A stretch of DNA of 23,668 nucleotides, taken from positions 1-23,668 of the IMG/VR virus record IMGVR_UViG_2713896785_000022; one strand, written 5' to 3'. Positions 412 through 22,965 of the stretch are shown here, in pieces. The notes beneath the pieces were generated by a model. The model was not told the origin of the DNA, made no database searches, and saw only the letters and a list, made by a program, of their open reading frames with translations. Origin of the DNA: a virus. Taxonomy: Duplodnaviria > Heunggongvirae > Uroviricota > Caudoviricetes. Each line of letters starts with the position of its first letter. Within the stretch, counting starts at the first letter, position 1. The position numbers and the translations under genes are program-made.

Positions 412-650
412 ATAGCTGCACCTGCACTGCCTGATGTCAGAACAGTATTTTGATGAATTGCCAAGGTTACAATGGCACAAATGCGGCACAGGAGGAAACG
501 TGGTGTATTTAAATATGGGGTGATAATAGGAATGAACATTACAAGTTAACACATTGATTTATAATAGATTATAATATTCAAAAAATATAACTATACACAT
601 ATCTATACACACTGCGTGCGTCGCTTGTTTTTCGCACAATTAAAAATAAG

Positions 651-952: not shown

Positions 953-998
953 GGGAGGTCGGGATAAAAAAAAGACCGGCAGATGCCGGTCAGGTGGG

Positions 999-3332: not shown

Positions 3333-3346
3333 GGTGTAGTTCTCCT

Positions 3347-3667: not shown

Positions 3668-3802
3668 TTGCTTTCCTCCCTGTGACAGATGACTGCATTC
3701 TGTGCCGGTTGCATTAACTGATAAGGCATATCTGCGTCTCCTGAAGACGTGCGTATCCCTGCGCGAATACGCACATTTAATTTTTCGGGTGTCGTTTTTT
3801 AA

Positions 3803-4258: not shown

Positions 4259-4583
4259 GCGTCCTGTCTCCCCGGTCTTTCTGCTGGGCGAGAAAATCGC
4301 GGCACAGGCCTTTGGCTTTCAGTTCATTCAGCACAAAATCAATATCTTCATTCAGGTAACTGAAAATATGCGGAATGTAGAGCTGATGCAGGCCGGAGAG
4401 TTCACGGTGAATCAAATCACCCCCAACAAACTGGGATACGGCGCTGGCGCGGTTGAGCTTATGGTAAGCCTCAATGCTGAGGTGTTCACGGGCGTCATGA
4501 CGCGCTGAGACGGTCTGAGGGGGTTTTTTATTACGCACGGGACACCTCCACCACCGGCAGACGAGCAGCAAGGGAGAGCACAT
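4251..4583 (-). CDS. Hypothetical protein, possibly P4 epsilon-like; start uncertain
   Basis: C-terminal ~110 codons of the 4251..4778 ORF; stop overlaps the start of the 151-aa gene. Possible starts at 4583 or 4619, neither with a clear RBS. Confidence 0.3.
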
Positions 4584-5126
4584 AGTCACGGACAAGGGAA
4601 CGGCGGGCGCTGCGTTCATCACCGGCGACGGTGCGAAGCATACAGATACGGGGATGACGGTCTGCGCGACGGACAGCCGCAAACACAAAGACAAATTCAG
4701 GGTGTGAGGGGGTAAGGGTCGTAGCCATAAGGCAACCTCCGATAACAGCGTAAATGACGCTATCGCCGGAGTTTCCACGCTCGATGGCGATAGCCCAGAC
4801 GGGGGTGGAAATACCGGCGTTATCGGAAACCGGCCAGCCCGGAGGCTGCCCCGCCTGAGCTACCATTGACTCTGCGGTATAATGAGCGGACGCGGGCAGA
4901 ATGCACGGAGTGCCATTTGCTCGACTGACCACACACCACACCATAATCTGGCGCTCTGTGGCGTTGATTGCGACACAAAAAAAGACGCATGGCGCGTCAT
5001 ATGTCGCCGATAACATACTCGGGTTTCCACGCCCGGCTGCCGATTTTGCGGCAGCGGAAAAACTATATCCGCAAATGCCGGAAAAAGGCAAGCCAGAAAA
5101 AGGAAGTTTTTGCAGAACAGGCATCA

Positions 5127-5393
5127 TCATGCGTCGTACCCCCGTTTGCGTCCGGCAATGCGCCCGGCCATCCATGCGGTGACTTCAGAGTGCAGCCAGG
5201 CCACATTTTTACCGCCAAGACTCACCTGCGGCGGAAATTCCCCCTTACGGATGAGTTCATAGATGGTCGAGCGTGACAGGCCGCACAGGTGCATCACTTC
5301 CGGCAGACGTAAAAAACGCTCCTGCGTGATGTCCGGCAGCGGCATCAGTGGCGTCACAGGGGCGGGAGACGGGGAGGAAAAAACAGCTTGCAT
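5127..5393 (-). CDS. vis: Vis/AlpA-family excisionase-type regulator (88 aa)
   Basis: AlpA-like helix-turn-helix ([29 protein letters not shown]…[11 protein letters not shown]); 88 aa as in P4 vis; lies between the ori iterons and the alpha operon. Confidence 0.8.
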
Positions 5394-5671
5394 CGGGCTA
5401 CCTCGTTAATGTCCATACAGCACCGGATAAGTCCGTCCGGCTTCGGGTAGCGCTTTATTTTGTGAATATTTTCGGCAGACGCAACAGGGGGGATTTGTTC
5501 CGGCAGCCTTACAATGGCTGTGTATTTTTTGTACATCAGCGCCAGATAGCTTTAAAACGCTCTGGAAGGAGCTGGAAAAAATTATAGTGAAATACAAATT
5601 GTTTTTTCTTATTTATTTCAGTGAATTAATAAAAATAAAAAGTAATAAACAGCACAAAAAGCCCATCAACG

Positions 5672-5786
5672 GGTGAACAGTGGTGAACAGACGGTGAACA
5701 GTCATTACTGCGATTGTTCACCATTTAACTTACTGTATTACTTATCTTTTTTATTAAGGTGAATAGAGGTGAACAGAGGTGAACAG
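5672..5786. repeat. P4 ori-like iteron cluster (GGTGAACAG / TGTTCACC repeats)
   Basis: GGTGAACAG at 5672, 5682 and 5693; inverted TGTTCACC at 5715; GGTGAATAG at 5758; GGTGAACAG at 5768 and 5778, with an AT-rich spacer. Same octamer as in crr. Confidence 0.65.
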
Positions 5787-5864
5787 TAAAATATAAAAAA
5801 ACAAACAGTAAGCCGGTTTTTCCTGCGACCTTTTCCTGGCTTGCCGGTCTGAGGATGAGTCTCC

Positions 5865-5882
5865 TGTGTCAGGGCTGGCACA
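5865..5882 (+). promoter_or_regulatory. Candidate Delta/Ogr activator site (TGT-N12-ACA) of a Psid-like late promoter
   Basis: TGTgtcagggctggcACA lies about 70-90 bp upstream of the sid start codon, as expected for P2/P4 late promoters, which carry a TGT-N12-ACA dyad near -55. Confidence 0.4.
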
Positions 5883-5954
5883 TCTGCAATGCGTCGTGTT
5901 GTTGTCCGGTGTACGTCACAATTTTCTTAACCTGAAGTGACGAGGAGCCGGAAA

Positions 5955-6689
5955 ATGTCTGACAACACCATCCCTGAATATCTGCAACCCGCGCTGGCAC
6001 AACTGGAAAAGGCCAGAGCCGCCCATCTTGAGAACGCCCGCCTGATGGATGAGACCGTCACGGCCATTGAACGGGCAGAGCAGGAAAAAAATGCGCTGGC
6101 GCAGGCCGACGGAAACGACGCTGACGACTGGCGCACGGCCTTTCGTGCAGCCGGTGGTGTCCTGAGCGACGAGCTGAAACAGCGCCACATTGAGCGCGTG
6201 GCACGCCGGGAGCTGGTACAGGAATATGACAATCTGGCCGTGGTGCTGAATTTTGAACGTGAACGCCTGAAAGGGGCGTGTGACAGCACGGCCACCGCCT
6301 ACCGGAAGGCACATCATCACCTGCTGAGTCTGTATGCAGAGCATGAGCTGGAACACGCCCTGAATGAAACCTGTGAGGCGCTTGTCCGGGCAATGCATCT
6401 GAGCATCCAGGTACAGGAAAATCCGCTCGCCAACACCACCGGCCATCAGGGCTACGTCGCGCCGGAAAAGGCTGTCATGCAGCAGGTGAAATCATCGCTG
6501 GAACAGAAAATTAAACAGATGCAAATCAGCCTCACCGGCGAGCCGGTTCTCCGGCTGACCGGACTGTCAGCGGCAACACTCCCGCACATGGATTATGAGG
6601 TGGCAGGCACACCGGCACAGCGCAAGGTGTGGCAGGACAAAATAGACCAGCAGGGAGCAGAGCTTAAGGCCAGAGGACTGCTGTCATGA
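5955..6689 (+). CDS. sid: Sid-like capsid size-determination (external scaffold) protein (244 aa)
   Basis: ATG at 5955 with GAGGAG RBS 7 nt upstream; 244 aa as in P4 Sid; coiled-coil-rich; first gene of the sid-delta-psu block. Confidence 0.85.
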   Translation: MSDNTIPEYLQPALAQLEKARAAHLENARLMDETVTAIERAEQEKNALAQADGNDADDWRTAFRAAGGVLSDELKQRHIERVARRELVQEYDNLAVVLNFERERLKGACDSTATAYRKAHHHLLSLYAEHELEHALNETCEALVRAMHLSIQVQENPLANTTGHQGYVAPEKAVMQQVKSSLEQKIKQMQISLTGEPVLRLTGLSAATLPHMDYEVAGTPAQRKVWQDKIDQQGAELKARGLLS

Positions 6690-7186
6690 TTTACTGCCCG
6701 TCGTGTGGACATGTTGCTCACACCCGTCGCGCACATTTCATGGACGATGGCACCAAGATAATGATTGCACAGTGCCGGAATATTTATTGCTCTGCGACAT
6801 TTGAAGCGAGTGAAAGCTTTTTCTCTGACTGTAAAGATTCAGGAATGGAATACATTTCAGGCAAACAGAGATACCGCGATTCACTGACGTCAGCCTCCGG
6901 CAGTATGAAACGCCCGAAAAGAATGCTTGTTACCGGATATTGTTGTCGGAGATGTAAAGGCCTTGCACTGTCAAGAACATCGCGGCGTCTGTCTCAGGAA
7001 GTCACCGAGCGTTTTTATGTGTGCACGGATCCGGGCTGTGGTCTGGTGTTTAAAACGCTTCAGACCATCAACCGTTTCATTGTCCGCCCGGTCACACCGG
7101 ACGAACTGGCAGAAAGCCTGCATGAAAAACAGGAACTGCCGCCAGTACGGTTAAAAACACAATCATATTCGCTGCGTCTGGAATGA
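6686..7186 (+). CDS. delta: Delta-like late transcription activator (tandem Ogr-type zinc fingers, 166 aa)
   Basis: Two Ogr-like halves each with CxxC…CxxC (CPSCGH…CRNIYC and CCRRCK…CTDPGC); 166 aa as in P4 Delta; start overlaps the sid stop. Confidence 0.9.
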   Translation: MIYCPSCGHVAHTRRAHFMDDGTKIMIAQCRNIYCSATFEASESFFSDCKDSGMEYISGKQRYRDSLTSASGSMKRPKRMLVTGYCCRRCKGLALSRTSRRLSQEVTERFYVCTDPGCGLVFKTLQTINRFIVRPVTPDELAESLHEKQELPPVRLKTQSYSLRLE

Positions 7187-7259
7187 GGGCTGCCGGTTAA
7201 CACCGGCCGTCGCCGCACACCGTATTTTTATTCTTCAGCATGATGAGAAAGAGATAACG

Positions 7260-7832
7260 ATGGAAAGCACAGCCTTACAGCAGGCCTTTGACACCTGTCA
7301 GAATAACAAAGCAGCATGGCTGCAACGCAAAAATGAGCTGGCAGCGGCCGAACAGGAATACCTGCGGCTTCTGTCAGGAGAAGGCAGAAACGTCAGTCGC
7401 CTGGACGAATTACGCAATATTATCGAAGTCAGAAAATGGCAGGTGAATCAGGCCGCCGGTCGTTATATTCGTTCGCATGAAGCCGTTCAGCACATCAGCA
7501 TCCGCGACCGGCTGAATGATTTTATGCAGCAGCACGGCACAGCACTGGCGGCGGCACTGGCACCGGAGCTGATGGGCTACAGTGAGCTGACGGTCATTGC
7601 CCGAAACTGTGCCATACAGCGTGCCACAGATGCCCTGCGTGAAGCCCTTCTGTCCTGGCTTGCGAAGGGGGAAAAAATTAATTATTCCGCACAGGATAGC
7701 GACATTTTAACGACCATCGGATTCAGGCCTGACGCGGCTTCGGTGGATGACAGCCGTGAAAAATTCACCCCTGCGCAGAACATGATTTTTTCGCGTAAAA
7801 GTGCGCAACTGGCATCACGTCAGTCTGTGTAA
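7260..7832 (+). CDS. psu: Psu-like polarity suppression / capsid decoration protein (190 aa)
   Basis: 190 aa as in P4 Psu; last gene before cos in the sid-delta-psu block. Confidence 0.85.
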   Translation: MESTALQQAFDTCQNNKAAWLQRKNELAAAEQEYLRLLSGEGRNVSRLDELRNIIEVRKWQVNQAAGRYIRSHEAVQHISIRDRLNDFMQQHGTALAAALAPELMGYSELTVIARNCAIQRATDALREALLSWLAKGEKINYSAQDSDILTTIGFRPDAASVDDSREKFTPAQNMIFSRKSAQLASRQSV

Positions 7833-7996
7833 AATTCCCCGAAAATCCGCCTGTTTTTACTGAAAAAAGCCATGCATCGATAAGGTGCATAGCTTTGCAT
7901 GCGTTTCCCTGCCTCATTTTCTGCAGACCGCGCCATTCCCGGCGCAGTCTGAGCGTGTCAGTACAACTGCATTAAAACCGCCCCACAAAGCGGGCG

Positions 7997-8015
7997 GGCG
8001 AGGCGGGGAAAGCAC
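7997..8015. other. cos site: 19-nt P2/P4-type cohesive-end sequence GGCGAGGCGGGGAAAGCAC
   Basis: Exact match to the P2/P4 cohesive-end sequence as I remember it, located between psu and the cargo gene as in P4. Confidence 0.8.
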
Positions 8016-8425
8016 TGCGCGCTAAAAAGGAAATTGAAATCCAGTAACCCCAAATACCTTAGCTAAAAGAGCCTAAGGAATCTAACGCATTCAACTGTCA
8101 TAAAACATAATGTGTTACATAATGGAGATAGTGTGAAAACAACTGATATAGATCATAGAAGGCTTGGCTCCGTAAGACATCTAAGGTGTTATCTTAATCA
8201 ACTGCAGCAAAGGCATTCTGCCACTGTTAATGGAAACTTGTTTCGAATTGGATAACTTCAATGTTGCATCGTGTTTTACATATCTTGTTCAACTACAATA
8301 CATTGTTGCCTGCAAATTTAATTTTTTATTAGAATACTTGTAACTTAGTTCGCAGCATCAATTGTGTTTTTCAAACTTGATGTTAACTGATGATATGGAA
8401 CATTATTTGTTAGAAAGGTGATAAT

Positions 8426-10021
8426 GTGCAAGAACGGGATCTAGGAAGCATGGGCGAGGCATTATTTATGCAACTTTGCGCATCTGTTGGGTTAATATAC
8501 AACCCATCATTAAAAGACAGTGCTGGATGGGATTTCATTGTTGACTTCCCTACACAATTTTCAACTCACCCAATGATAGATAAAAGTGCATCCCCTATCG
8601 AGTGTAAAATTCAAGTCAAAGCAACTGATGGTACTTCAAAAAAAGTACAAATTACTTTATCAAATATGATGCGTTTATGCGGAAGTAAGCTCCCCGCTTT
8701 CTTTTTTTTCATTGAGTATAATAAAAGCAATACTCCACAAGCAGTTTATGTTAGACACTTTGATAAAAATCTAATGTTTAAAACATTACAAAGAGCCAGA
8801 GAAAACTCTATTTTAAAAGAACCCAAAAAACTGAACAAAATTAACATTACAGTATCATTTGACAGCCCCCATAAATTAGACGCAATAACAGGTGAACATT
8901 TAAAGTCTACAATTGAATCATACGTAAATGAAGGTATGGAAGTTTATACTGAAAAGAAAATAAATCACTTAAAAAATTTAGGTTATGAAAATGGAGGATA
9001 TAAATTAACTTTTCAGACAAAAGCGGAAGTTGAATACGATAATCTGATCAATGCGTCTCTTGGATGGGTTAATAAAGCGAAAGCTAGAAATATAAAGTGC
9101 TTTGACGAACGATTTAATATCTCTATGCCTCTTGAGAACAAGAGTTTTTCTGAAGCCGATTTATCGTTTGGGGTTGAAAATTTTGAAACAGATGCCATAT
9201 TGAAAATAACAAACATGACATCAAAAAAAACCATTCGCCTCGAATGTAAATTATATGTTAGTCCACTATCCATCAATGCTCCAGATAAGCATATCAAAGC
9301 AAGATTAAAATCCTCTTATTTCGACATTTTAATTTATCTTAAAACAGGACTCCTTACATATCGATTTGATTCATATGACAACATATTGAATCTATTTGAG
9401 ATCAAAGATAATTTAACCATCATGCGATGGATTTATGAACAGAAGGACATGCTGGAATTTGAAATAAATATTTCTAACAGTCATAACCCAATGACTTTAA
9501 TAACAAATGCCAATAAAGAACTAATACAAGACACCTCATTAATTGAAAGCTGTATTCAGGCATTAAATACAACAGAGAATGCTATTATTATATCTGACCG
9601 ATTAAGTATTCAGGGGCAAGTTAAGACAACTATTACAAAATTGGGTATACATAGTGATAATACTAACATAATTGGGCAATTACTAAGTAACCCAAATTAT
9701 TCCCCAGCAATGAAACTGACATCTAAGAATAAAATAAAATCACCCCCAAGTGAAATAAATGCATGTTGTTTAGCAGTTATCGCCACTAAACTAGGTGATT
9801 TTATAGTGCTTGTTATAATCACCATTAACGGAAAAGGAGTTTACTCTAAAAATGAATATCACCTGTCTAACCCCAGTATAAAATTAGAAGACATAATGTA
9901 TTGTTATCACAATGAAGATATCACAAAAAAATTAATAACAAAAACAAAATCAATAGCAGATAAACATATGAAAAGGGATGACATTGTCTTCATAAACTTA
10001 TTTCACGATGACAATAATTAG
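8426..10021 (+). CDS. Hotspot cargo gene: 531-aa protein with N-terminal DUF4365-like PD-(D/E)xK nuclease signature and unassigned C-terminal region; candidate anti-phage defence protein
   Basis: Long ORF in a strongly AT-rich segment between cos and int. GTG at 8426 (AAGGTG upstream) or ATG at 8450 (AGGAAG upstream). Motifs …KDSAGWDFIVDF… and …IECKIQVKATDG… fit the DUF4365 pattern. Followed by a strong terminator. Confidence 0.8.
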   Translation: MQERDLGSMGEALFMQLCASVGLIYNPSLKDSAGWDFIVDFPTQFSTHPMIDKSASPIECKIQVKATDGTSKKVQITLSNMMRLCGSKLPAFFFFIEYNKSNTPQAVYVRHFDKNLMFKTLQRARENSILKEPKKLNKINITVSFDSPHKLDAITGEHLKSTIESYVNEGMEVYTEKKINHLKNLGYENGGYKLTFQTKAEVEYDNLINASLGWVNKAKARNIKCFDERFNISMPLENKSFSEADLSFGVENFETDAILKITNMTSKKTIRLECKLYVSPLSINAPDKHIKARLKSSYFDILIYLKTGLLTYRFDSYDNILNLFEIKDNLTIMRWIYEQKDMLEFEINISNSHNPMTLITNANKELIQDTSLIESCIQALNTTENAIIISDRLSIQGQVKTTITKLGIHSDNTNIIGQLLSNPNYSPAMKLTSKNKIKSPPSEINACCLAVIATKLGDFIVLVIITINGKGVYSKNEYHLSNPSIKLEDIMYCYHNEDITKKLITKTKSIADKHMKRDDIVFINLFHDDNN

Positions 10022-10030
10022 TAATTTTCG

Positions 10031-10056
10031 AAGGGGCTAGCCCCTTTTCTTTTTTA
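10031..10056 (+). terminator. Rho-independent terminator after the hotspot gene
   Basis: Perfect palindrome AAGGGGCTAGCCCCTT followed by TTCTTTTTT, 10 nt after the stop codon. Confidence 0.7.
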
Positions 10057-10091
10057 TAAAAAATAAATACTAAAACTAAAAAACAATTATA

Positions 10092-11258
10092 TTAACTAAA
10101 AATATTATCTGAATACCATTGCATCATCACCTTTCGCTTTTCAAAATATTGGGCGTGATTATATGTTCCTCTTATAGAGTTTTTATCTACATGAGCAAGT
10201 TGCATTTCAATCCAAGCGGTATTAAAGCCATTTTCATGAAGAATTGTTGATAATGTATGCCTAAACCCATGTCCTGTAAGTTTTCCAGCATAGCCTATTC
10301 GTTTGATAAGTTGATTAACACTTGCCTCACTCATAGGTTTATTTGGATCATTCCGTCCAGGAAAAACATAACGATAATTTCCTGTCATAGATTTGAGTTC
10401 ATTAAGAAAGCCTAGCGCCTGCGTCGATAAGGGGACAAGGTGCGGCCTACGCATTTTCATTCTCTCAGCAGGAATTTCCCAAATAGCGTTATCTAGATCA
10501 AACTCTTGCCATAATGCTGCTCGTAACTCGATAGTTCTAACCCCCGTAACCATTAATAATTTTGTGGCAATCTGAACAAGTCGGCTTCCTGTATAACTAT
10601 CTAAAGCACGCAGAAAATCAGGTATCTCATCTGATTTTAAGAAAGGAAAATGATTTGATTTATGAACTTCAAGGGCACTGGACAGATCTGCCGCAGGATT
10701 AAACTCTGCTCTTCCAGTAGCAATGGCATATCGAAAAACCTCTGAGCAACGTTGCCGCACTTTGCGCATTTTCTCCAATGCACCACGCTTCTCAATTTTA
10801 CGCAGTACATTTAGCAATTCTAGCGGTTTAATTTCCCCTACAGGCCTCGCCCCCACATACGGAAAAATATCATTCTGGAACGCTTCAATAATATCTGAGG
10901 CATACCCAGCAGACCATTTTGCCGATTTCATCTGATGCCACTCTCTGGCAATCTTTTCGAATGCGTTCTCAGATTGAATTCTTAATGCTAGTTTTTGTTC
11001 TTTTCGAACCTCACTAGGATTTTTTCCCTCAGCCACTATTTTTCGTGCCTCATCACGGCGAGAACGAGCTTCAGCAAGTGTGATCGTTGGATAGACACCA
11101 AGCGAGATCATTTTAGGCTTACCTGCATAGCGGTAACGAAATCGCCAACTTTTACTTCCATTTGGCTCTACAAGTAAAGACAACCCTTGCCCATCCCCAA
11201 GTGTATAGGCTTTAGCTTCAGGTTTAGCACGGCGAATCTGCATATCATTTAGGGGCAT
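10092..11258 (-). CDS. int: P4-type tyrosine integrase (388 aa)
   Basis: N-terminal arm-binding domain typical of P4-family integrases (IRRAKPEAKAYTLGDGQGLSLLVEPNGSKSWRFRYRYAGKPKMISLGVYP), C-terminal catalytic region with …GHGFRHT… and …RGTYNH…; convergent with the cargo gene. Confidence 0.9.
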   Translation of the reverse strand: MPLNDMQIRRAKPEAKAYTLGDGQGLSLLVEPNGSKSWRFRYRYAGKPKMISLGVYPTITLAEARSRRDEARKIVAEGKNPSEVRKEQKLALRIQSENAFEKIAREWHQMKSAKWSAGYASDIIEAFQNDIFPYVGARPVGEIKPLELLNVLRKIEKRGALEKMRKVRQRCSEVFRYAIATGRAEFNPAADLSSALEVHKSNHFPFLKSDEIPDFLRALDSYTGSRLVQIATKLLMVTGVRTIELRAALWQEFDLDNAIWEIPAERMKMRRPHLVPLSTQALGFLNELKSMTGNYRYVFPGRNDPNKPMSEASVNQLIKRIGYAGKLTGHGFRHTLSTILHENGFNTAWIEMQLAHVDKNSIRGTYNHAQYFEKRKVMMQWYSDNIFS

Positions 11259-11583
11259 GTGTATAGAATTCCATAATCGAACAGGAACATATACATAATC
11301 CTATACACATTTAGTACTGGATTCCACTGGAAGGTTATGGACTAACATGGACAAAAAGAACAAAAAATCTTTTATAAAACAGTATGATTATGGATTAATA
11401 CGGATGTTTGAAGAAGTGGAGATGGTGCCGATAATAGGAGTAAAACACTCGATTAATCTCGTGTTAATGCCATCACCTACGACCATTACTAATTGATTGA
11501 ATCTTATAGAAAAATCATCATTTTCTATGCGTCACAATCAATTTTCACATTACAAACGCTCCGACACTTTAGCCGGAGATTTT

Positions 11584-12861
11584 ATGAGATACAAGCCTAA
11601 CCAATACTTAATCTGTGATTCTTACGGTAACTACTATTTAAGGATCACGCTGCCTGTGTATATGAAGCCCTTTTTTGAAGGAAAAAGGACGTTTGTCAGA
11701 AGTCTACATACAAGTAATCTTCGTGTGGCACGTAGAAAGCGTGATCAGATTGCAGATGAATACCATTGCTTACGGGAGAGTGTTGCCCCTGTAAACAGCA
11801 CAATAGAAAACACGCTGGAACTGTTACGCAGTAAGGCTAAATACGCCAAAACAGCTACCAGAGTGCAAGATACAGCGTCTTCGTGTCCGTCATTGCTTAA
11901 AATTCTTGAAATCTACCTGACAATTAACAGCACGAAGAAGAAGCCAGCCACTTTAGCTAAGGCAAGAAAAGCGGTAGAGATGTTTCTCTCCTACCGTAAA
12001 AAGCCTGATATTGCATTGCAAGATGTAAGCCGCACCACTGTTACAGGCTGGATTGAACACATGCAAAAAACTCTTTCACAACAATCAATTGCAAATTATA
12101 TCAGCCCAATGGCCCAGCTATGGGAATTAGCTTCATCACGTTACCACGATGCGCCAGAAAGGGCGCTCTCCCCCTGGCGAGGGCATAGGCTTGATGTGGC
12201 ACAAAGTAGAGAGAGCTACGAGGCATTTTCTAACAAAGAGCTATTGCAGGTGTTGCAAGTATTTTCCGGTAATTCAGCAGAAAACAAAGAAATGACGGCT
12301 TTGTGTCTTATCGGTTTATATACAGGTATGCGGATCAATGAGATAGCAAGTCTCACAATAGACGATGTGAAAGAGATCGAAGGTGTGCTGTGTTTTGAAA
12401 TCACACAGGGAAAAACGAAAGCTGCGGCACGTCTTGTGCCTGTGCATAGCCTTATCACTCCATTGGTGTTATCTCTTCGTGAAAAGCCTCACAATGGCTT
12501 TTTGTTCTATCACGCCAGCATTACAGAGCGTGCTGACGGTAAACGCTCTACGTGGCATACACAACGATTTACAAGAGCTAAACGAAAGGCTTTAGGGGAA
12601 AAGGGAACAGAAAGGAAAGTGTTTCATTCTCTGAGACACGGAGTAGCACAGCTTCTTGATCGAAATCAAATTCCAGAGGACCGCATAGCTTTAATGTTGG
12701 GCCATCAGCGCGGCAATACAGAAACATTCCGCACATATAGCAAGAATGCAGCTTCTCCAGTAGAGCTTAAAAAATATATTGAGCTTTTACGCTACCCTGA
12801 AATAGAGAAAGGCTTATCAATCAATAAAAAATCAAATTTAAGGCGTAAAACAACGCTATAG
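11584..12861 (+). CDS. Second tyrosine recombinase/integrase (about 425 aa; ORF could start at 11497)
   Basis: Catalytic signatures …GMRINEIASLT…, …HSLRHGVAQ…, …GHQRGNTETFRTYSK…; ATG at 11584 has a GGAGA RBS. Divergent from the P4-type int with ~325 bp between the two starts. Confidence 0.8.
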   Translation: MRYKPNQYLICDSYGNYYLRITLPVYMKPFFEGKRTFVRSLHTSNLRVARRKRDQIADEYHCLRESVAPVNSTIENTLELLRSKAKYAKTATRVQDTASSCPSLLKILEIYLTINSTKKKPATLAKARKAVEMFLSYRKKPDIALQDVSRTTVTGWIEHMQKTLSQQSIANYISPMAQLWELASSRYHDAPERALSPWRGHRLDVAQSRESYEAFSNKELLQVLQVFSGNSAENKEMTALCLIGLYTGMRINEIASLTIDDVKEIEGVLCFEITQGKTKAAARLVPVHSLITPLVLSLREKPHNGFLFYHASITERADGKRSTWHTQRFTRAKRKALGEKGTERKVFHSLRHGVAQLLDRNQIPEDRIALMLGHQRGNTETFRTYSKNAASPVELKKYIELLRYPEIEKGLSINKKSNLRRKTTL

Positions 12862-12941: not shown

Positions 12942-13619
12942 CTATTGTTTAAATACTGGCGTTACAACGTCTTGCCCTGGGCTTTTTTGATTTTTCTGTT
13001 CTGTTGTATTTACCTGCATTTTAACCTGTCCCCCTACAGATTTATTTGGTGCTGTTTTTACCGCAATTGCGCTTGTAGTTGCTTTAGAGACAAGACGGAT
13101 TTGCTCAAAATCAAGAGTAAACAATAGGCTTTCGCTTGCTTCTTCTTCATAAGACATGCCAACTAACACAACGTTGTCATAATTTTTTAACTCAGTGACA
13201 AGTAGGAAAGGTTGGCGACTGTCCATCAACTGATTTAGGTATTCAAGCATAAGCATACGTCGATTGCCGTTAATTCCCGCATTCTTAATCATATCGGGAT
13301 TGAGCTTCAATACGGTTTCAGAGATACGCCCTTGTAATGTGAACTTGTTATTCCGTATTTGAACATGATCACTAACTTCTGATCCTGATTCGACAGCATA
13401 GCTTGTAACGTCTGCATTTCTGCTAATTTTCGTCGATTCCACGCTATCAAATGATAATGCCTGGTAGTCATTGTAAGCAGCATTTGCACCACTGCCGAGG
13501 TTAGAGGCAATGATCGCAAAGCCGTTACCCCCTTTAGTTGTTCTACCGTTGCTATCGTTGCTTGTGCTGTTGATTTTCGCCTCAGTCGGGCGACCAATGG
13601 TTAACGGACCCATTGCCAT
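12942..13619 (-). CDS. Hypothetical protein (225 aa), possibly virion-associated
   Basis: Last gene of the leftward operon containing the capsid genes; AAGGA RBS; no recognisable motif. Confidence 0.55.
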   Translation of the reverse strand: MAMGPLTIGRPTEAKINSTSNDSNGRTTKGGNGFAIIASNLGSGANAAYNDYQALSFDSVESTKISRNADVTSYAVESGSEVSDHVQIRNNKFTLQGRISETVLKLNPDMIKNAGINGNRRMLMLEYLNQLMDSRQPFLLVTELKNYDNVVLVGMSYEEEASESLLFTLDFEQIRLVSKATTSAIAVKTAPNKSVGGQVKMQVNTTEQKNQKSPGQDVVTPVFKQ

Positions 13620-13666
13620 AATTTGTAATCCTTATTTAAGGGGGCTAAACAGCCCCACAGCGATGA

Positions 13667-15508
13667 TTAATAGGTTGACCCGCCTGACATAACACCCAGC
13701 GTTAATAGCTTGCTAAACTCAGCGGAGGATGCCTTTGATTTGAAGTCGATAAATTCGCTCAATCGTCCGGTGTCTGATTCGATAGTTAGCGGCACTTCTG
13801 CATTTACTTGTAATTCTGGATTGAAGTTAATAACAGGTGCAAAGGTGTAAGAAGGAGCCTTGAAAGCTTGTTGTGCTGCACTCTGTTTCAGATTTGCAAT
13901 GTTTTGTCCTTCGAGACTGTATTGATTTACAGCCTGCGCCCCACCTACCGTTTCTTCTGGCATAAACCAGCTTTTAATAGTGTTAACCAGGGAATTGCTG
14001 TTATCTGGCTTAATTGTTCCGGTGCCAGCGCCTTTATATTGATCAGGAGTGAGATTAGAAAGATTCTGCTTCATTCCTTCGTTAGATAGTGGCGGTGCAT
14101 CCCCTAAATTCTTTTGAATAGCTGCCGTCTTCTCGTCGTTTTTCATCAGCCAGTTGATTGCTTTCATTACAGCGTTAACCAATCCGCCGATAGCCTCGCC
14201 TAATTTGGTAAACATTGGCAGCATTGCAACCATGCTCTTTTTAAACTCTTCAATCACTTTCGGATCAAGAGATTTCATAAAGCCATCAACAAAGGCGATC
14301 CCTTGTGAGTCAGAAAGCCCACTAAGTGCATTATTCAGTTCACGGAATTTAATAACGCTTTCCTGTTGTGCCTGCGTTACCCAGCGCCCTGATTCTCGTT
14401 GTTCTCGTGCTGATTGTTCCACTTCTTTAGCGGAGCGTGTCCAGTATTTAGAGGTGAGCATCAAATCATCAGCCAGATCTTCCAGACGACTACCGATTTG
14501 TGCATCTGAATAGCCTTTAGCTACCATTCCCTGAACTGCTTTACTAACCAGACCAGCCGGATTATCAGCAAAGTCTTTTAGATCCTTTTTAGTTAGGAAT
14601 CCTTCATTCATTAAAGTATTGATGCCGCTATCGCCGCCCTTCCATTCTCCTTTACCAGTTTTCTTATCAACTACATATTCAGCCTCATCATAAGATTTAG
14701 TAGCCTTCTCCCGTACATCTTTCATCTGATCGAGATACTTACGTTTACCTTGATCCCCCATCATTGAATCAACGCCGTTTTTATACGCCCATTGCTCAAT
14801 ATTGTTCATCTGGTTAACGTCTACACCGCCCAGCTTCGCACGGCTATACAATTCTCCCAGCGTTTCAGCACTGGCAAAGCTGTTAGTAACAAATTCAGAG
14901 GCTTTGCTCATAGCCATATATGCAGCGCCAGCGCCTAAGCCACCCAGCATAACAGCCGCAGCACCGCCGCCAATACTCCCGCTACCCTTAACAGGTGCAT
15001 AGGCTTTAGCGTAAGCGTTACGATTGCCATTAATCTTACGTTGTTGCTGTTGTAGGCGTTTCATTTGGCTATTCATACGTGCCAGACTAATAGCGCCTCT
15101 TTCATATTGGAGGGCAATTTCTCTAGCCTGTGCAATAGCTTTATATTGTTCCGCTACAGAAAGACGGTGCATTGCACTAATGCTTGATCCAACGTCTAAA
15201 AGCTTTAATTCTGCCTTCTCTTTGCGTGCTGCCAGGGCTTTTTGTTCTCTTGCAACTACACGTTGAGCGGCTAATTGTGCTTTAGCATTAGCTTTATCAG
15301 CCTGTGCTTGCTTTTTAGCAATATCGTCTACGTCTTTTTTTGCTTTAGCGGTTGATTGTTTATGTGTCTTAACACGCAATTCTATATCTTTCACAGCCGC
15401 CATTTGTTTACGAAGTTTTTCTACTTCTGCTTTTGCTTTCTCTAATGATGGTCGATCAACCTGGAAGGTGACAACGTTTGATAAGCGGCTGACGGTAAGG
15501 TCTAACAT
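13667..15508 (-). CDS. 613-aa coiled-coil protein with a Gly/Ala-rich hydrophobic segment (scaffold-, tape-measure- or ejection-protein-like)
   Basis: N-terminal ~170 aa of Lys/Ala/Gln-rich heptad-like sequence, then GSGSIGGGAAAVMLGGLGAGAAYMAMS, then a long mixed region; same operon as the major capsid gene. Confidence 0.65.
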   Translation of the reverse strand: MLDLTVSRLSNVVTFQVDRPSLEKAKAEVEKLRKQMAAVKDIELRVKTHKQSTAKAKKDVDDIAKKQAQADKANAKAQLAAQRVVAREQKALAARKEKAELKLLDVGSSISAMHRLSVAEQYKAIAQAREIALQYERGAISLARMNSQMKRLQQQQRKINGNRNAYAKAYAPVKGSGSIGGGAAAVMLGGLGAGAAYMAMSKASEFVTNSFASAETLGELYSRAKLGGVDVNQMNNIEQWAYKNGVDSMMGDQGKRKYLDQMKDVREKATKSYDEAEYVVDKKTGKGEWKGGDSGINTLMNEGFLTKKDLKDFADNPAGLVSKAVQGMVAKGYSDAQIGSRLEDLADDLMLTSKYWTRSAKEVEQSAREQRESGRWVTQAQQESVIKFRELNNALSGLSDSQGIAFVDGFMKSLDPKVIEEFKKSMVAMLPMFTKLGEAIGGLVNAVMKAINWLMKNDEKTAAIQKNLGDAPPLSNEGMKQNLSNLTPDQYKGAGTGTIKPDNSNSLVNTIKSWFMPEETVGGAQAVNQYSLEGQNIANLKQSAAQQAFKAPSYTFAPVINFNPELQVNAEVPLTIESDTGRLSEFIDFKSKASSAEFSKLLTLGVMSGGSTY

Positions 15509-15894: not shown

Positions 15895-16923
15895 TTACGC
15901 TACTGTGATCTGCACAGAGAAGCCAACACCGTGGTTAACCACAAGCGAGCTATTCTCGGTCACTACGTGCACTGCGTCGCCGCGATTCGATTCGAAAGCA
16001 TAGCTGTAATACTCTTTAGCGCCTTGAGACAGCAGATCGAAGGAACTGGAAGGCGCGCCATAGATAGCTTGGTAAACACCTCCACCCTTAGCGAATTTAG
16101 GCACGGCTACAGCGTCAGCGGTCATATGTGCCAGCAGCAGCGGATCAGTCACTTTGATCAGATCAATGTTAGTTCCTGGAATGGTGAAAGTAGTTACGCC
16201 AGGCAGCAGAGAACGCACATTAAACACCACGTTTGCATCGTCTACAGGGCTTGCATATTGGAACGCATTGACCATGCCAACGCTGTAACGAATAGCGTTG
16301 AATGCCGCAGGTTTACAGAACACAACAACACGCTCAATGGTTGCAGCCTGGCTTTGTGCCTTAGCAATCATATCCGTATGCATCTGATCAAATTGCTTGA
16401 ATACGGTCATTGTGTTGGTGCTGGATGCGTCAACGGTTGCAGTCATTGGAGACACACCGAACAGAGTGCTGTAATCGATCAGAACATCGTCAGTTTTCGG
16501 GGTATGTGTCTTGCCAGAGAACAGAGAAGCCGCGAGGATGCTTTCTTTAGTGCGCTGGAATGCAACATTGTGTTTAGCGATATATTCCGCATACAGATCC
16601 GGCAGTGTTTCTTCAATAGAGCTTCCGGCTTTGCGTTTGCCTTGCACGTCCTGCGGTTTGATCAGGTCTTCACGCAGGAAGTAAGGGATTTCAATCAGCC
16701 ATTCTTCCCCGTTCTCACGCTTAGTAACGTTATGCTCAGAGCTAAAACGGCTTGTAGGATGGTTGAACAGAGATTCATTGCTCTCGATAAGCTGGGAAAC
16801 AGCCACTTTGTGACTTTCTACAGGCACAGGATCAGTAAAATCCAGAGTAGACAGTAGGTAATTGCGTGAGTCGTTTAATTCGAACAGTGGAGCAAGATCA
16901 ACCACTTCATTTCCGATAATCAT
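15895..16923 (-). CDS. Major capsid protein, lambda gpE-like (342 aa)
   Basis: Length matches lambda gpE (341 aa); C-terminus …GFSVQITVA resembles the gpE C-terminus as I recall it (…FVSVQLA); directly preceded by a ~118-aa gene in D-then-E order. Confidence 0.65.
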   Translation of the reverse strand: MIIGNEVVDLAPLFELNDSRNYLLSTLDFTDPVPVESHKVAVSQLIESNESLFNHPTSRFSSEHNVTKRENGEEWLIEIPYFLREDLIKPQDVQGKRKAGSSIEETLPDLYAEYIAKHNVAFQRTKESILAASLFSGKTHTPKTDDVLIDYSTLFGVSPMTATVDASSTNTMTVFKQFDQMHTDMIAKAQSQAATIERVVVFCKPAAFNAIRYSVGMVNAFQYASPVDDANVVFNVRSLLPGVTTFTIPGTNIDLIKVTDPLLLAHMTADAVAVPKFAKGGGVYQAIYGAPSSSFDLLSQGAKEYYSYAFESNRGDAVHVVTENSSLVVNHGVGFSVQITVA

Positions 16924-16939
16924 TATTATTTATTCCTTC

Positions 16940-17296
16940 TTAAGATGTGAAAACAGAGTGGAAGCCTTCAAGCTGGAAGCCTTTAGCAGCTTCTTTTACA
17001 GCGCCTTCGGCATTCAGGGCATCAGCTTTGATGCAAACGAGTCCGGCATTAGCACGAAGCACGTTAACTGTTTTATTTGAATCAGCAGTTACGAAGTCAG
17101 ACACAACGACAAGAACATCAGCGCCGCTAACATATTTAGCGCCGGATGAATCAATGAGGTCGCCGCACGTTACATCTTGTGCAAGTGCTGCAAATTTTTT
17201 GCTTTCTACAGCCGCGTAAGGGTCGGTTGCATAGCTCACTACGTCAGTGATGCTTTTACGATGTGGGAAAACATCGCTTAATTTTAAAATAGCCAT
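16940..17296 (-). CDS. Head decoration protein-like (118 aa)
   Basis: Size and position immediately upstream of the major capsid gene, as for lambda gpD; strong AAGGA RBS; the call rests on context, not sequence similarity. Confidence 0.45.
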   Translation of the reverse strand: MAILKLSDVFPHRKSITDVVSYATDPYAAVESKKFAALAQDVTCGDLIDSSGAKYVSGADVLVVVSDFVTADSNKTVNVLRANAGLVCIKADALNAEGAVKEAAKGFQLEGFHSVFTS

Positions 17297-17505
17297 TATT
17301 TTTCCTTAGATTGTTTGATTTGTTGAGCTTTAGCATTAATCAAATCTTGGTGAGATGGTTTATTGCTTTCAGCCTTATAAAGACGTTCACACTGTTTCTT
17401 TAATTCTGTGGGAGTGATGCCAAGCGCGTAGGCTGTAGCATTCAACACATCTTCAGTTAGTGTTAACTTTTCATTGCCATATTTCAGGATAATTTCTTGT
17501 TTCAT
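17296..17505 (-). CDS. Small hypothetical protein (69 aa), first gene of the capsid operon
   Basis: Stop overlaps the start of the decoration-like gene (TAATG), suggesting translational coupling. Confidence 0.5.
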   Translation of the reverse strand: MKQEIILKYGNEKLTLTEDVLNATAYALGITPTELKKQCERLYKAESNKPSHQDLINAKAQQIKQSKEK

Positions 17506-18497
17506 TTATATAACGATTCCATTATGTTGGAATTTAATAAATCCCCCAGGCTATAAGAGGTTCAATCTGACAATAGCGAGGGGGATTTATTAACGTGTCG
17601 GGCAATACACAGCGATAAGTAAAACCTTGAGGAGGTTTTAAACGTATCTCTAAGAATGCTTATTAAACATGCTTAAAGATAGGTTTAAAGGGTGAACAGA
17701 TATTCCTGAAAACATGCTCTTAGGAAAACATGCGGAATCAATCAGGAATATCTATTCGGGGCGCGGTGGCTAACCGCTATCTTTCATGGTGTGGATGCAC
17801 CAGTCAGATTTTAAGGAATCACTGTTCCAATCTACTCACAGATTAAATTTTAATAGGGATTAACTACACCAACAGTAATCTACCGTTTCAGAAAAAGCTT
17901 TTTTACAACCAAAGATTATAGATTTGCAGTCTATAAAACCCGTTTTGCTATCAATATTTCCAAAGGTTATTGCACAATTCTTAGCTAAACTCTCTCTGCT
18001 TGCGGCTAACGCTATGCAGATGATTGTTTTTGACAACAACTTAATAGATTATTCTGTTACTAACTTCTGTCATTAAATAAGAGTTTAATGATGTTAGTAA
18101 ATAGTTATAAAATATAACTATCAGTGTAAGGCTCTTTAATGTTTTCGGACAAAATAAGGAGCTTTAGGATAAGCATAGATGAAAATAAGAGCGGGAAGGG
18201 CAAGGAGATAACACCTACCCGCTTTTATCAAAAATTAAGCACAATGCCTAACAACATTCATCAACACAACGTAGAAACAATCAACAATCAAAGAGGGAGT
18301 TATGATTATTCTAAAACTTCTTGAGGGGATGGAAGGTAATATTTGTTAGAGGTTAATGCCACTCAACCTTTGAGGCTATCACCTTCCATATGCAGGGATT
18401 TATGACAGTAGAAGGATTAACACCAGTCAAAACCTTTTTATCTACCCCTAATATTATTATATAATGAAATCGTTATAAATGCAAATGATTTTCATTA

Positions 18498-19825: not shown

Positions 19826-20452
19826 TTAAAAGGGTAGTGAATCATATATTGTGCTCTCACTTTTGAGATCAATTATCAAAGAGTCAAAATCATTTTCACA
19901 AAGATAGATATTCTTTGAATCTAATGCTCGTTTTACAAAATCTTCTGTTTCTTCGTGCGGTGGTTTCTTCTTATCAAGGGAAAGAAGCCAAGTAAAAATT
20001 TCGGGCCGCTCAGGGAACTCTGATTCCTGTTTTTCTTCTTCAACGATGATTTCTGAAACATTCAATATTTCATTAGATTCGTTTTCTTTCTCAGAAGGAT
20101 CAGGTAGTGATGACTCTCCTGGGGGAGTAATATGTGCATCTGTGAGAGGGAGAGCATTGTAAATCAAAGATGAAATATACGGATCAGGATGTGGGGATGT
20201 TTCTAATAATCCCATCTCTTTAAGATCGTTTATCTTACGTTTAATTGTTGATGGTGAAGACTTAAAAATCTTAGCTAATGTTTCGTGACTTTCATAACAA
20301 TTAAGACCATTTTCCTGATAACTAAGAAATCTATAATAAAGAACAATGTGCAATAAATCTAAAACCTTACCTTCTGGAAATTCATTAGAGTAAATCTTTG
20401 ATATATTATCAAACGTGTTATAGTGTTTTGTAAAAGTTGGCTGGTTTATCAT
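19826..20452 (-). CDS. Winged-helix DNA-binding protein with acidic C-terminal half (208 aa); putative replication initiator or regulator
   Basis: N-terminal …CYESHETLAKIFKSSPSTIKRKINDLKEMGLLE… resembles winged-helix motifs of replication-organizer and regulator proteins; C-terminal half is Glu/Asp/Ser-rich. Confidence 0.55.
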   Translation of the reverse strand: MINQPTFTKHYNTFDNISKIYSNEFPEGKVLDLLHIVLYYRFLSYQENGLNCYESHETLAKIFKSSPSTIKRKINDLKEMGLLETSPHPDPYISSLIYNALPLTDAHITPPGESSLPDPSEKENESNEILNVSEIIVEEEKQESEFPERPEIFTWLLSLDKKKPPHEETEDFVKRALDSKNIYLCENDFDSLIIDLKSESTIYDSLPF

Positions 20453-20875: not shown

Positions 20876-21336
20876 TAATTAACCTCCTATTCTATTTGGT
20901 TAAAAGAAAAAGACACCTTGCAAGCCTTGGGCTTCAAAGTGCGGTGCATTGGTTTAATTATTTAGAGGATAAGAATCTATTCCTGTCCCTCTAATACCTA
21001 TTATTGCACAGAAAGAGACGTTTGTCAATACCCTTTTCGCAAAAAAAATCGATCTTTTTCAGCATGTTATAATTTGTCTTAGCAATTCGTGCTCTTACGA
21101 GTACTCCTATTCTTCCTTATTCTCTAAAACGCTCTAAAATGCGTTCTAACGAGGTTTTGATAAAAACAATACATTCCCTTATGTAGAGGCTGTTTAGCTC
21201 GCCAGAGGCTTATTTAAGGGGTAGAATCTCATCTACTACCTAACATCTTTAAACCATATTTTTCTTTTTTGTCTGTTTGATGGTTGATCTATAGTTATGC
21301 GTTAGCATCCCCAAAGGGGTAACGCTACTCTAATTG

Positions 21337-21359
21337 CATTCGCCAGAACATTGCACAAG
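21337..21359. repeat. Left arm of a 23-bp inverted repeat (CATTCGCCAGAACATTGCACAAG); a related direct partial copy lies near 21450-21479
   Basis: Reverse complement matches 21687..21709 with one mismatch. Confidence 0.6.
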
Positions 21360-21686
21360 AAATTTATTTTAGATGATTGATGATCGTTAGATTGGCGTAA
21401 GCCTCATCAATGGAACTATTGAAGCGCACAGCGCATAGACACTAACAACCATTCGCTTACGCTCAGGTTATTGCACAAGTAAATTTCAATCGTTAGATGG
21501 TAGTTAGTTAATTATCGTTCTGCGCACAGCGCAAGACTATTTAGCCTTACGCAAGCCGTAGGCTATTTGCACATAGTAGATTACATATTCGTTGTGAGCG
21601 GCATTAGCGAACATAGATCTACTAACTAACATCAACAAACAAAAAACTATGTGTTATGACAAGCAGTCTAACGACTAACACTCTAA

Positions 21687-21709
21687 CTTGTGCAAGGTTC
21701 TGGCGAATG
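21687..21709. repeat. Right arm of the 23-bp inverted repeat (CTTGTGCAAGGTTCTGGCGAATG)
   Basis: 22/23 match to the reverse complement of 21337..21359; the arms are ~330 bp apart and ~700 bp upstream of the serine recombinase gene. Confidence 0.6.
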
Positions 21710-21851
21710 CCAATAGATTAAAGGATAGTCGTTAGACTCCCTAACGGGTATCCCTATAATTATTCTTATAAAGATAAAAAAGAATTATATTATATAGTTT
21801 AATAGTTAGTTTTATTATTAGTATTATCGTTAGTCTTATTGTGGTTCAAAT

Positions 21852-21906
21852 TGACCTACCCCCCTAGCTCACAGTGACCTACCCCCCTAGCTCACAGTGA
21901 CCTACC
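21852..21906. repeat. Tandem 23-bp iteron-like direct repeats (TGACCTACCCCCCTAGCTCACAG, about 2.4 copies)
   Basis: Two perfect 23-bp units (21852-21874, 21875-21897) plus a 9-bp partial third, in an AT-rich non-coding stretch. Confidence 0.7.
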
Positions 21907-22407
21907 GTTACATCCATTTATCACATAACATCTGTGCAATGATCTTCTAAAAGTGTTTCTTGCTACCAAAATTAAACATCTAAAACAGGCTTAAATTCAA
22001 GATTAATTGATGATTAATCCTTATGTAATTCCTACGTAAAAATTCAATGAAAAGTAGCTTAAAAGTGCAATGTTAGCTTTCTTCACTTTTACATCACTTT
22101 CGCTGCGCCTTGTGTAATGCGGCATATAGCGCATCACTGCAAAATTGTTGCTCAATAAACGTTCTATCATTTGTCGAACAAGTTTCTTTAATGCAACAAA
22201 AAATTATTTTTTCAAAATAAACACACTATTTAATAGCTTGCTAATTTTACCAAAACGTAACTACATGATTCTCATGCAAGACGTGTAGTGATAAAGCAGG
22301 CTAAATCACCACACTAAAAACCTTCGAATTTCGTAGTGAAAAAAGTCCTTTACACACCTAATCAACACGATCAATAATCACTACACACAAATCAACACAG
22401 AAGGAAA

Positions 22408-22965
22408 ATGAAAATGGCTAATATTGGATACATTAGGGTATCGACTGTCCAACAAAACACAGACCGTCAATTAGCTGGAGTAACTCTTGATAAAGTCTTT
22501 GAAGATAAAGCGTCAGGCAAGAATACCCAGCGCCCACAGTTTGAGGCAATGATGAACTATGTGCGGGAAGGTGATGTTTTGCATGTTCACAGCATTGATC
22601 GACTTTGCCGTAATACAGCCGACCTACTGGCAACGGTTGAGCAATTAACAGAGCGCGGCGTGTCTGTGCATTTCCATAAAGAAGACTTTAAGACAGGGAA
22701 GAACTCTCCCGCAGGGAATATGATGCTCACAGTGCTTGCAGCAGTGGCACAAATGGAACGTGAAATGATGCTTGAGCGGCAGCGTGAGGGGATCGCCGCA
22801 GCTAAGGCCGCTGGACGTATAGCAAAACGTGGTAATGGAAAAGCAATTGATCGAGCGGGAATTGTTGCCGCTCTCGCGAATGGTGGATCAATTCGGAGCG
22901 TAGCAAAAGATTTCAGTGTCAGCACACAGACGGTGCAACGTATCAAGAAAGAGCAGGAAGCGTAA
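22408..22965 (+). CDS. Serine recombinase (resolvase/invertase family, about 185 aa; likely start at 22414)
   Basis: N-terminal catalytic motif MANIGYIRVSTVQQNTDRQ with the active-site Ser context, C-terminal HTH (…SIRSVAKDFSVSTQTVQRIKK…); AGGA RBS upstream. Confidence 0.85.
   Translation: MKMANIGYIRVSTVQQNTDRQLAGVTLDKVFEDKASGKNTQRPQFEAMMNYVREGDVLHVHSIDRLCRNTADLLATVEQLTERGVSVHFHKEDFKTGKNSPAGNMMLTVLAAVAQMEREMMLERQREGIAAAKAAGRIAKRGNGKAIDRAGIVAALANGGSIRSVAKDFSVSTQTVQRIKKEQEA

Follow-up and report, generated by a model that had tools for sequence, protein, structure and literature searches.

A putative satellite island of Escherichia coli that encodes a predicted tape measure protein of the phi92/phAPEC8 phage type

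The IMG/VR virus record IMGVR_UViG_2713896785_000022 (positions 1-23668, hereafter the window, 23,668 nucleotides (nt) in full) carries at 13667-15508 a gene for a protein of 613 amino acids (aa), which RefSeq names "hypothetical protein". The open reading frame (ORF), given in an initial annotation without a strand, is real and lies on the minus strand. Comparison with phage proteins strongly supports its identity as a tape measure protein (TMP) like those of Stephanstirmvirinae phages such as phi92, phAPEC8 and phiWec188, and the protein is predicted to be functional as a TMP. The gene belongs to an island of ~12.9 kb in Escherichia coli, where it is accompanied by genes for a tail tube initiator and a major capsid protein (MCP). 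The reading that we prefer, with a probability of roughly 60%, is that this island is a satellite which substitutes its own TMP into tails built by a helper phage of the phi92/phAPEC8 group, so that hybrid particles are formed.

The protein was identified only through PHROGs and through direct comparison with phage genomes and PDB sequences. Among the PHROGs, phrog_16051, "tail length tape measure protein", matches residues 154-611 (E = 1.2e-30). The TMP of phiWec188 (651 aa) aligns by BLASTP with residues 1-611 at 26% identity (E = 5e-42), both termini being conserved, and Phi92_gp134 (659 aa; PDB 21vq, chain V) is found with E = 4.4e-20 from the single sequence and E = 1.2e-172 from the family profile. 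Cryo-electron microscopy (cryo-EM) has described phi92 gp134 as a trimeric TMP whose C-terminal residues 631-656 lie inside the baseplate interior (PMC13450770). When 50,697 phage records were searched by tblastn, 134 matched, most of them Escherichia phages by organism name. Among the best matches listed, the genomes measure ~145-154 kb, those examined belong to Phapecoctavirus or Justusliebigvirus within the Stephanstirmvirinae, and the matching regions, where annotated, are called tape measure protein. Foldseek comparison of an AlphaFold2 model with predicted viral structures likewise retrieved mostly TMPs. Against the PDB nothing significant emerged (best E = 0.2), as expected, because TMP bodies are unresolved and only ~25 residues are resolved in any homologue. 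Curated models, including those of TMPs such as the lambda gpH-like ones, did not recognize the protein: it matches no Pfam-A family at E <= 0.1 and no NCBIfam model at E <= 0.01. The family is narrow, with 73 representatives at 50% identity among 1.84 billion proteins, the full-length ones having 578-668 aa.

Compared with the TMPs of phi92 (gp134), phAPEC8, PHB05 and phiWec188, the island protein is homologous over its full length at an identity of just 26-30%. Conservation is highest in the N-terminal ~25 residues, in portions of the central domain (~226-350) and at the extreme C-terminus of ~45 residues. The Gly/Ala-rich hydrophobic segment stands at an equal alignment position on both sides. 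The island protein is 21-49 residues shorter, mostly through the lack of a ~43-residue stretch that the phage proteins have just before this hydrophobic segment.

Residue counts bear out the composition first noticed in the protein, a Lys/Ala/Gln/Glu-rich region of ~170 residues followed by a Gly-Ala-rich hydrophobic stretch. Residues 1-170 contain 18% Ala, 13% Lys, 9% Gln, 9% Leu, 8% Arg and 6% Glu, with only one Pro and three Gly between residues 20 and 165, and residues 171-205 contain 26% Ala and 26% Gly. Within the latter lies the most hydrophobic 19-residue window of the protein, GAAAVMLGGLGAGAAYMAM, at residue 182 (Kyte-Doolittle 1.41). Structure prediction, suggested in the initial annotation, was carried out with AlphaFold2 from a 36-sequence alignment of diverse homologues and reached a mean predicted local distance difference test score (pLDDT) of 66.7. 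Long helices are predicted at residues 19-169, one of them 70 residues in length, followed by an unconfident segment (174-208), a globular and mostly helical domain at ~210-395 with pLDDT >90, and a C-terminal third of low confidence. The "long N-terminal coiled coil" proposed earlier is thus upheld as regards the long helices but not as regards the coiled coil, since heptad periodicity was not evident in a crude a/d test (0.31-0.48 hydrophobic residues per register vs 0.42 overall). The hydrophobic maximum falls at a common alignment position (reference 177-186) in 33 of the 36 family members, and because this position is kept at identities of only ~20-30%, the Gly/Ala segment is not a product of chance. 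As a family-wide feature of these TMPs, it is likely to be the part that inserts into the membrane after ejection.

The neighbourhood of the gene partly repeats that of the phages. The claim that no tail genes accompany the protein does not hold, as a tube initiator gene lies directly downstream. The string of structural genes runs on the minus strand from 17505 down to 12942, with several small ORFs elsewhere on the island, and comprises the following features in window coordinates:

12942-13619, minus strand: tail tube initiator, Dit-like, 225 aa, homologue of phi92 gp135 (PF21821, E = 1.6e-27)
13641-13656, read on the minus strand: GC-rich hairpin GGGGCT-gttt-AGCCCC in the 47-nt spacer between the TMP and tube initiator genes
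13667-15508, minus strand: TMP homologue, ATG start, 613 codons
15543-15740, minus strand: conserved small protein, 65 aa, between the capsid and TMP genes (RefSeq coding sequence WP_001531083.1)
15895-16923, minus strand: major capsid protein, 342 aa, lambda E-like, HK97 fold family (PF03864, E = 3.4e-18)
16940-17296, minus strand: conserved capsid-cassette protein, 118 aa, conserved in 8 islands, at the position of the phage cement/decoration gene
17296-17505, minus strand: first gene of the structural string, 69 aa (ORF and RefSeq coding sequence; a gene of 64-80 aa stands there in related islands)

The tube initiator matches Phi92_gp135 (PDB 21vq_N) with E = 2.5e-54, as well as the tube initiators 9cuy_K and Pam3 gp17, and is 49-53% identical to the phiWec188 and phAPEC8 proteins. 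In phi92, gp135 is the hexameric tube initiator (PMC13450770). In the phages, too, the tube initiator gene follows the TMP gene and a hairpin stands in the spacer between them. The one at 13641-13656 may be a terminator, as suggested by the putative terminator annotated in phAPEC8 at the corresponding spacer. A weak Shine-Dalgarno-like GGGA precedes the TMP start by ~10 nt. The best phage matches of the MCP are those of the Stephanstirmvirinae, at ~25% identity over the full length, and the PDB entry for Phi92_gp124 is matched with E = 4e-9.

In PHB05, phiWec188 and phAPEC8 the gene order is cement, MCP, neck genes, sheath, tube, chaperone, small ORF, TMP, tube initiator and hub. The island order equals this minus the neck, sheath, tube and chaperone genes, with nothing beyond the initiator. 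Directly upstream of the TMP gene the phages have a 160-aa chaperone and a small ORF, and the island has the 65-aa protein alone. A gene of 62-71 aa, alignable with it, occupies this position in every island examined. The 65-aa protein, possibly of helix-turn-helix (HTH) type, was considered as a tail assembly chaperone; it resembles neither the small ORF nor the chaperone upstream of the phage TMP, and no chaperone was found by Pfam or PHROGs. Homology of the 118-aa protein to the phage cement/decoration protein is likewise unproven: BLASTP gave nothing, hhalign a probability of 2% and a PDB profile search E = 0.66. One distant relative, L008, whose TMP is 33% identical, has an extra Pam3_gp18-like gene between TMP and tube initiator and a PhiTE-type head-tail adaptor (11809-12243 and 6739-7242 of L008), and the set of genes available for replacing helper parts therefore varies within the family.

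The element itself can be delimited, as the window can be placed at 100% identity on the E. coli 2013C-3264 chromosome, on which features beyond the window were read. Two mobile elements abut at the thrW tRNA-Thr locus, a P4-like satellite at ~600-11300 and then the TMP island, whose ~12.9 kb are bounded by 26-nt thrW direct repeats lying 12,877 nt apart and identical at 24 of 26 positions:

11422-11447: distal att repeat, a 26-nt copy of the 3' end of tRNA-Thr (thrW); its partner lies in thrW, ~630 nt past the window end
11497-12861, plus strand: tyrosine integrase with DUF6538, SAM-like and catalytic domains (PF00589, E = 2.8e-17; PF20172; PF13102)

Among the island ORFs, searches of Pfam and PHROGs recognized no sheath, tube, portal, terminase, protease, hub or fibres. 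Because sheath, tube, portal, terminase, hub and fibres are all missing from what could be recognized, the island cannot make particles alone. In this respect it differs from the phages, whose TMPs belong to genomes of ~150 kb, while the 12.9-kb island is without sheath, tube, chaperone, hub and fibre genes.

The lengths and the mosaic structure of the TMPs connect the islands with the phages. The protein had seemed short for a tape measure; the TMPs of the phi92/phAPEC8 phage group, however, have just 634-662 aa (n=12 in the phage clade), and those of the islands 599-622 aa (n=11). In a neighbour-joining tree, the TMPs demonstrated to be island-borne fall outside the clade that holds three known phage TMPs. 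The C-terminal ~45 residues (window 13667-13810), which can be aligned in all members, do not follow this pattern. Between the window island and phiWec188 they are 53% identical as against 21% for the rest of the protein, and between the islands L013 and P0121 and phiWec188 66% as against 25-30%. Between the closely related phages phiWec188 and phAPEC8, identity is 35% in this C-terminal part and 64% in the rest. Two C-terminal types are each common to islands and phages, one to the window island, L013, P0121 and phiWec188, the other to L006 and phAPEC8, and they cut across the phylogeny of the remaining TMP sequence. From this discordance it follows that islands and phages have exchanged the baseplate-docking end between their lineages, an exchange that would be difficult to account for if island TMPs did not function within the tails of phi92/phAPEC8-group phages, or against them.

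Evidence from bacterial genomes shows that the island is common and its gene set recurrent. At least part of the island region is present in 790 of 5426 complete E. coli genomes. The TMP and tube initiator are at least partly matched in 476 of these 5426 (~9%) and over >= 80% of the query in 182 (~3%); intact copies of the 613-aa TMP were found in hundreds of contigs. The recurrent core consists of a small gene, a gene of 113-128 aa, an MCP of ~345 aa, a gene of 62-71 aa, a TMP of 599-622 aa, usually the tube initiator, and an integrase. The tube initiator gene is missing in two distant members (L013 and L015). The integrase type of the window island also flanks the TMP/Dit genes in L006, L013 and L015, and the core occurs between yciQ and rluB as well, with a different integrase. 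It also stands on contigs whose TMPs are 25-39% identical to the 613-aa query, and in two cases of such distant island contigs the flanks do not match E. coli. A scan of species-representative genomes gave one close relative only. In comparisons of island variants, the ratio of nonsynonymous to synonymous substitution rates (dN/dS) amounts to 0.10-0.14 in the TMP gene and 0.09-0.12 in the tube initiator gene, which indicates purifying selection, along the whole length in the case of the TMP.

Furthermore, the capsid genes of the island are exchanged as a cassette. Eight islands (L016, L018-L020 and L023-L026) with integrase, tube initiator and TMP 97-100% identical to those of the window carry another capsid cassette. 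The MCP of this alternative cassette shares 55-56% identity with the L004 protein, and tblastn detects no similarity between it and the window MCP at E <= 1e-3; the MCPs of the two cassettes are barely alignable, at 19% identity. The 118-aa protein swaps jointly with the MCP, and the recombination break lies at ~17489 of the window. For this second, L004-like MCP type, neither a Pfam nor a phage match was found.

Relatives of a circular type were recovered as Logan contigs of 13.2-13.8 kb from four independent runs (SRR31140684, ERR11027388, SRR33527599 and SRR13791242). Their TMPs are 87-88% identical to the window protein. L004 and L011 are circular by 30-nt terminal overlaps, and L005 and L012 are circular permutations. 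Circularity is not an artefact of att repeats, because the break points differ between runs. These relatives have no integrase. They encode a helicase-like protein of 492-495 aa with a C-terminal HTH (phrog_2467), and a T4 Imm-like gene for superinfection immunity (PF14373) is present in three of the four. Such integrase-less circular forms were absent from the PLSDB plasmids and the GenBank phages.

Taken as a satellite of phi92/phAPEC8-group phages, the island would act as follows. Infection by a helper of this group would cause the island to excise and replicate. In the middle of the baseplate built by the helper, its TMP and tube initiator would then replace the helper's equivalents of gp134 and gp135, and the TMP trimer would be docked in hub and initiator through its conserved last ~45 residues. 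Tube and sheath of the helper would polymerize around the long helical body of the island TMP, whose conserved N-terminus would meet the tail-terminating proteins. At ~1.5 ångström per residue, the resulting tail would be ~6-9 nm shorter, which corresponds to roughly two of the 24 tube rings of phi92. The island's own capsid protein would build a head for the ~13-kb genome.

A precedent is available in Vibrio cholerae, where PLE satellites have genes for a TMP, a chaperone and a baseplate hub protein (TMP, TAC and BhuB) with 20%, 20% and 41% identity to the proteins of the lytic myovirus ICP1. They replace their ICP1 counterparts in chimeric tails that are ~10 nm shorter, and the PLE TMP is needed for efficient transduction (PMC12987554). 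Gene deletions in PLE lowered transfer by 96-99.9%. PLEs were called the first satellite family known to build chimeric tails, with the remark that the trait may be broader, and predicted tmp genes were reported on other putative satellites (PMC12987554). Like PLE11, the TMP island is a small integrative element without most of the virion genes, whose TMP is a low-identity relative of one from a large lytic myovirus. In both, the adjacent small baseplate protein is better conserved than the TMP (49-53% for the initiator and 26-30% for the TMP of the island; 41% and 20% for PLE). The satellite TMP is in both cases shorter than that of the phage, and the baseplate gene is not present in every variant, as in L013 and L015 on the one side and in "not all PLEs" on the other. 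The two systems differ in host and phage group, namely E. coli and relatives as opposed to V. cholerae, and in recombination, with a tyrosine integrase on the TMP island and PLE's own recombinase. PLE encodes a chaperone, while none was recognized on the TMP island by Pfam or PHROGs; the island has its own MCP, while PLE uses the ICP1 capsid protein. The function of the PLE proteins is experimentally established, and that of the island proteins is inferred.

Two other groups of satellites likewise encode a major capsid protein. As summarized in PMC12987554, cf-PICIs are satellites of Enterobacteria that have their own MCP and use helper tails (Alqurainy et al., 2023). The TMP island resembles them as an integrative element that supplies its own MCP. 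The head and packaging genes of cf-PICIs form a complete module of small terminase, portal, protease and head-tail connectors; on the TMP island only the MCP (PF03864) was detected, and Pfam and PHROGs gave no terminase, portal or protease. The island capsid protein belongs to the lambda-E/phi92 type, and its gene occurs together with those for a myovirus TMP and a tube initiator. EPIPs of Mycolicibacterium aichiense have been described as satellites with both MCP and TMP, whose tail length is altered relative to the helper (bioRxiv 2025, PMC12822802). By this description they agree with the TMP island in encoding both proteins. They differ in being actinobacterial, in depending on a siphovirus helper prophage and in encoding also a small terminase, adaptor, stopper and scaffold.

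Of the other explanations, two concern the protein and its genes as such. Besides a tape measure, the initial annotation had offered an internal/ejection protein or a scaffold. Some ejection proteins do possess a long helical N-terminal region and a hydrophobic segment, and the TMP gene is situated 386 nt downstream of the capsid gene. The protein is nevertheless homologous over its full length to one placed by cryo-EM in the phi92 tail and baseplate, its gene is directly upstream of the tube initiator gene as in phages, and Pfam and PHROGs gave no similarity to scaffold or ejection families; an ejection or scaffold role is already refuted as far as homology can refute it, and the tape measure alternative is the one that stood. 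It is also very unlikely that the island is a decaying prophage remnant whose structural genes have no present function. Such a view would account for the presence of only a subset of virion genes and for the RefSeq name. It is largely refuted by the conservation and by dN/dS of ~0.1, as distant island copies, with TMPs 25-39% identical, repeat the minimal gene set and its order elsewhere in the chromosome and in further bacteria. The precise att repeats and the existence of circular copies also speak against decay, and so do the related phages, which have ~150 kb and no annotated integrase in the 7-19 kb of their structural regions examined.

Several observations weigh against a satellite that borrows phi92/phAPEC8-type tails. 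Neither a chaperone nor a small terminase nor another gene for redirecting packaging was recognized in the small ORFs of the island by Pfam or PHROGs, and for this reason the entry of island DNA into capsids is unexplained. The MCP is only ~25% identical to that of the phages, which makes the use of helper portal and scaffold questionable. Excision of the island on infection, packaging and the presence of its protein in particles are themselves predictions. The integrase-less circular contigs could be plasmid forms instead of packaged DNA, and all IMG/VR matches are provirus predictions from isolate genomes, with none from viromes. The label "phage clade" in the TMP tree denotes clustering with three known phage TMPs only. 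The blastn matches to phages (82-84% identity) cover only ~140 nt of the tube initiator gene and were rejected as evidence of recent DNA exchange, for which the discordance of the TMP C-terminus at the protein level is the stronger argument. Some of these points fit an alternative in which the island serves defence, its TMP, tube initiator and capsid protein being dominant-negative decoys that poison the assembly of phage tails and heads without yielding transducing particles. Low-identity homologues with conserved docking ends would suit an assembly poison, as would the lack of a recognized packaging gene, and an arms race is suggested by the speed at which islands that are otherwise identical swap their capsid cassettes. 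Interference of satellites with the assembly of the helper, tails included, is known (PMC12987554; Tai systems, PMC11364771). A full-length TMP under purifying selection and a complete MCP, however, exceed what a decoy needs, no PADLOC defence model was matched (PADLOC has no family for the TMP, the tube initiator, the MCP or the 118-aa protein), and the circular ~13.5-kb forms and multiple integration sites show that the element moves. We consider pure defence unlikely; interference, moreover, does not exclude transmission, as PLE does both. Alternatively, the helper might be an as yet unsequenced and possibly temperate phage with TMP, tube initiator and capsid proteins of these families, and the island its satellite or a defective or mini-phage; the Stephanstirmvirinae would then be only the nearest sequenced relatives. 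The low identity to known phages (TMP 26-30%, MCP 25%), the predominance of island-borne clades among the TMPs sampled in the 1.84-billion-protein library, where one clade contains known phages, and the L004-like MCP type without match would be consistent with this. We judge it improbable in view of the tube initiator, 49-53% identical to that of Stephanstirmvirinae phages, and of the C-terminal TMP module, 53-66% identical to that of phiWec188, which points to direct contact with this phage group; PLE proteins have diverged equally far from those of a proven helper (20-41%).

The remaining part of the island contains genes and repeats that may serve its replication and movement:

19826-20452, minus strand: HTH_36/replication-initiator-like protein, 208 aa (PF13730, E = 1.7e-5; PHROG "replication initiation protein" families, down to E = 1.2e-7)
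21846-21914: three tandem 23-bp iterons, TCAnAnTGACCTACCCCCCTAGC, found by repeat search inside a 1.5-kb ORF-free region (20876-22407)
22408-22965, plus strand: small serine recombinase of the resolvase/invertase type, 185 aa, tRNA-proximal (NCBIfam models, E = 1e-14 to 1e-18, all below cut-off)

The region 20876-22407 has no ORF of >= 50 aa and contains, in addition to the iterons, 34-nt inverted arms at 21326-21359 and 21687-21720, 327 nt apart. A similar ORF-free stretch of ~2 kb is found at 362-2509 of the circular relative L004. The region is a candidate replication origin or regulatory region. A homologue of the serine recombinase stands at the corresponding island end in L010 and L015. 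Upstream of the structural genes, an ORF-poor region of ~1 kb (17506-18497) is framed by 17-nt inverted repeats (17509-17525 and 18461-18477) and contains a 21-nt hairpin at 17534-17593. As an invertible switch for the serine recombinase it was discarded, a single orientation being found in about a dozen related genomes. A scan for promoter and terminator consensus sequences returned fewer sites than in shuffled sequence.

The P4-like neighbour at ~600-11300 comprises a primase-helicase, C4 RNA, delta, psu and an integrase, and its nature is confirmed by the C4 antisense RNA (4783-4870) and isrK (4978-5055). Its satellite features (primase-helicase alpha, delta/ogr, psu, sid and C4 RNA) belong to this element and not to the TMP island. 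Between psu (7260-7832) and the P4-type integrase (10092-11258), an ORF of 531 aa occupies a patch of 31% GC on the plus strand (8426-10021). This interval is the position of the known P4 defence hotspot, and the ORF is a candidate for uncharacterized anti-phage cargo; searches of PADLOC and NCBIfam gave no match for it. The P4-type integrase (minus strand) is a frameshifted pseudogene in RefSeq, although the program-made ORF list shows an uninterrupted ATG ORF of 388 aa.

A literature search of incomplete coverage found no description of this TMP island family. The 613-aa protein adds a diverged new member to a known TMP family, and its setting varies the recently established theme of satellite-encoded tape measures, with another host and an additional capsid gene. 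Satellite-encoded TMPs were demonstrated only in 2026, in the PLEs of V. cholerae (Nature 2026, PMC12987554). If our reading is correct, the principle would extend to E. coli and to an element that also encodes a capsid. More tentatively, with somewhat less than even odds in our estimation, the islands could constitute an undescribed and widespread satellite family in E. coli and its relatives, which parasitizes phi92/phAPEC8-type myoviruses and remodels the helper's head and tail by means of its own capsid, tail ruler and tube initiator. The remodelling of both the head and the tail of a helper virion would be unlike any characterized satellite. Phages of the phi92-like and phAPEC8-like groups are lytic, have a broad host range and are often proposed for therapy. 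The shuffling of capsid cassettes and TMP docking ends would record an ongoing arms race with these therapy candidates, and both the performance and the evolution of these phages would be affected by a resident element able to hijack or sabotage their tails. Hundreds of database copies now called "hypothetical protein" can, in addition, be renamed tape measure protein.

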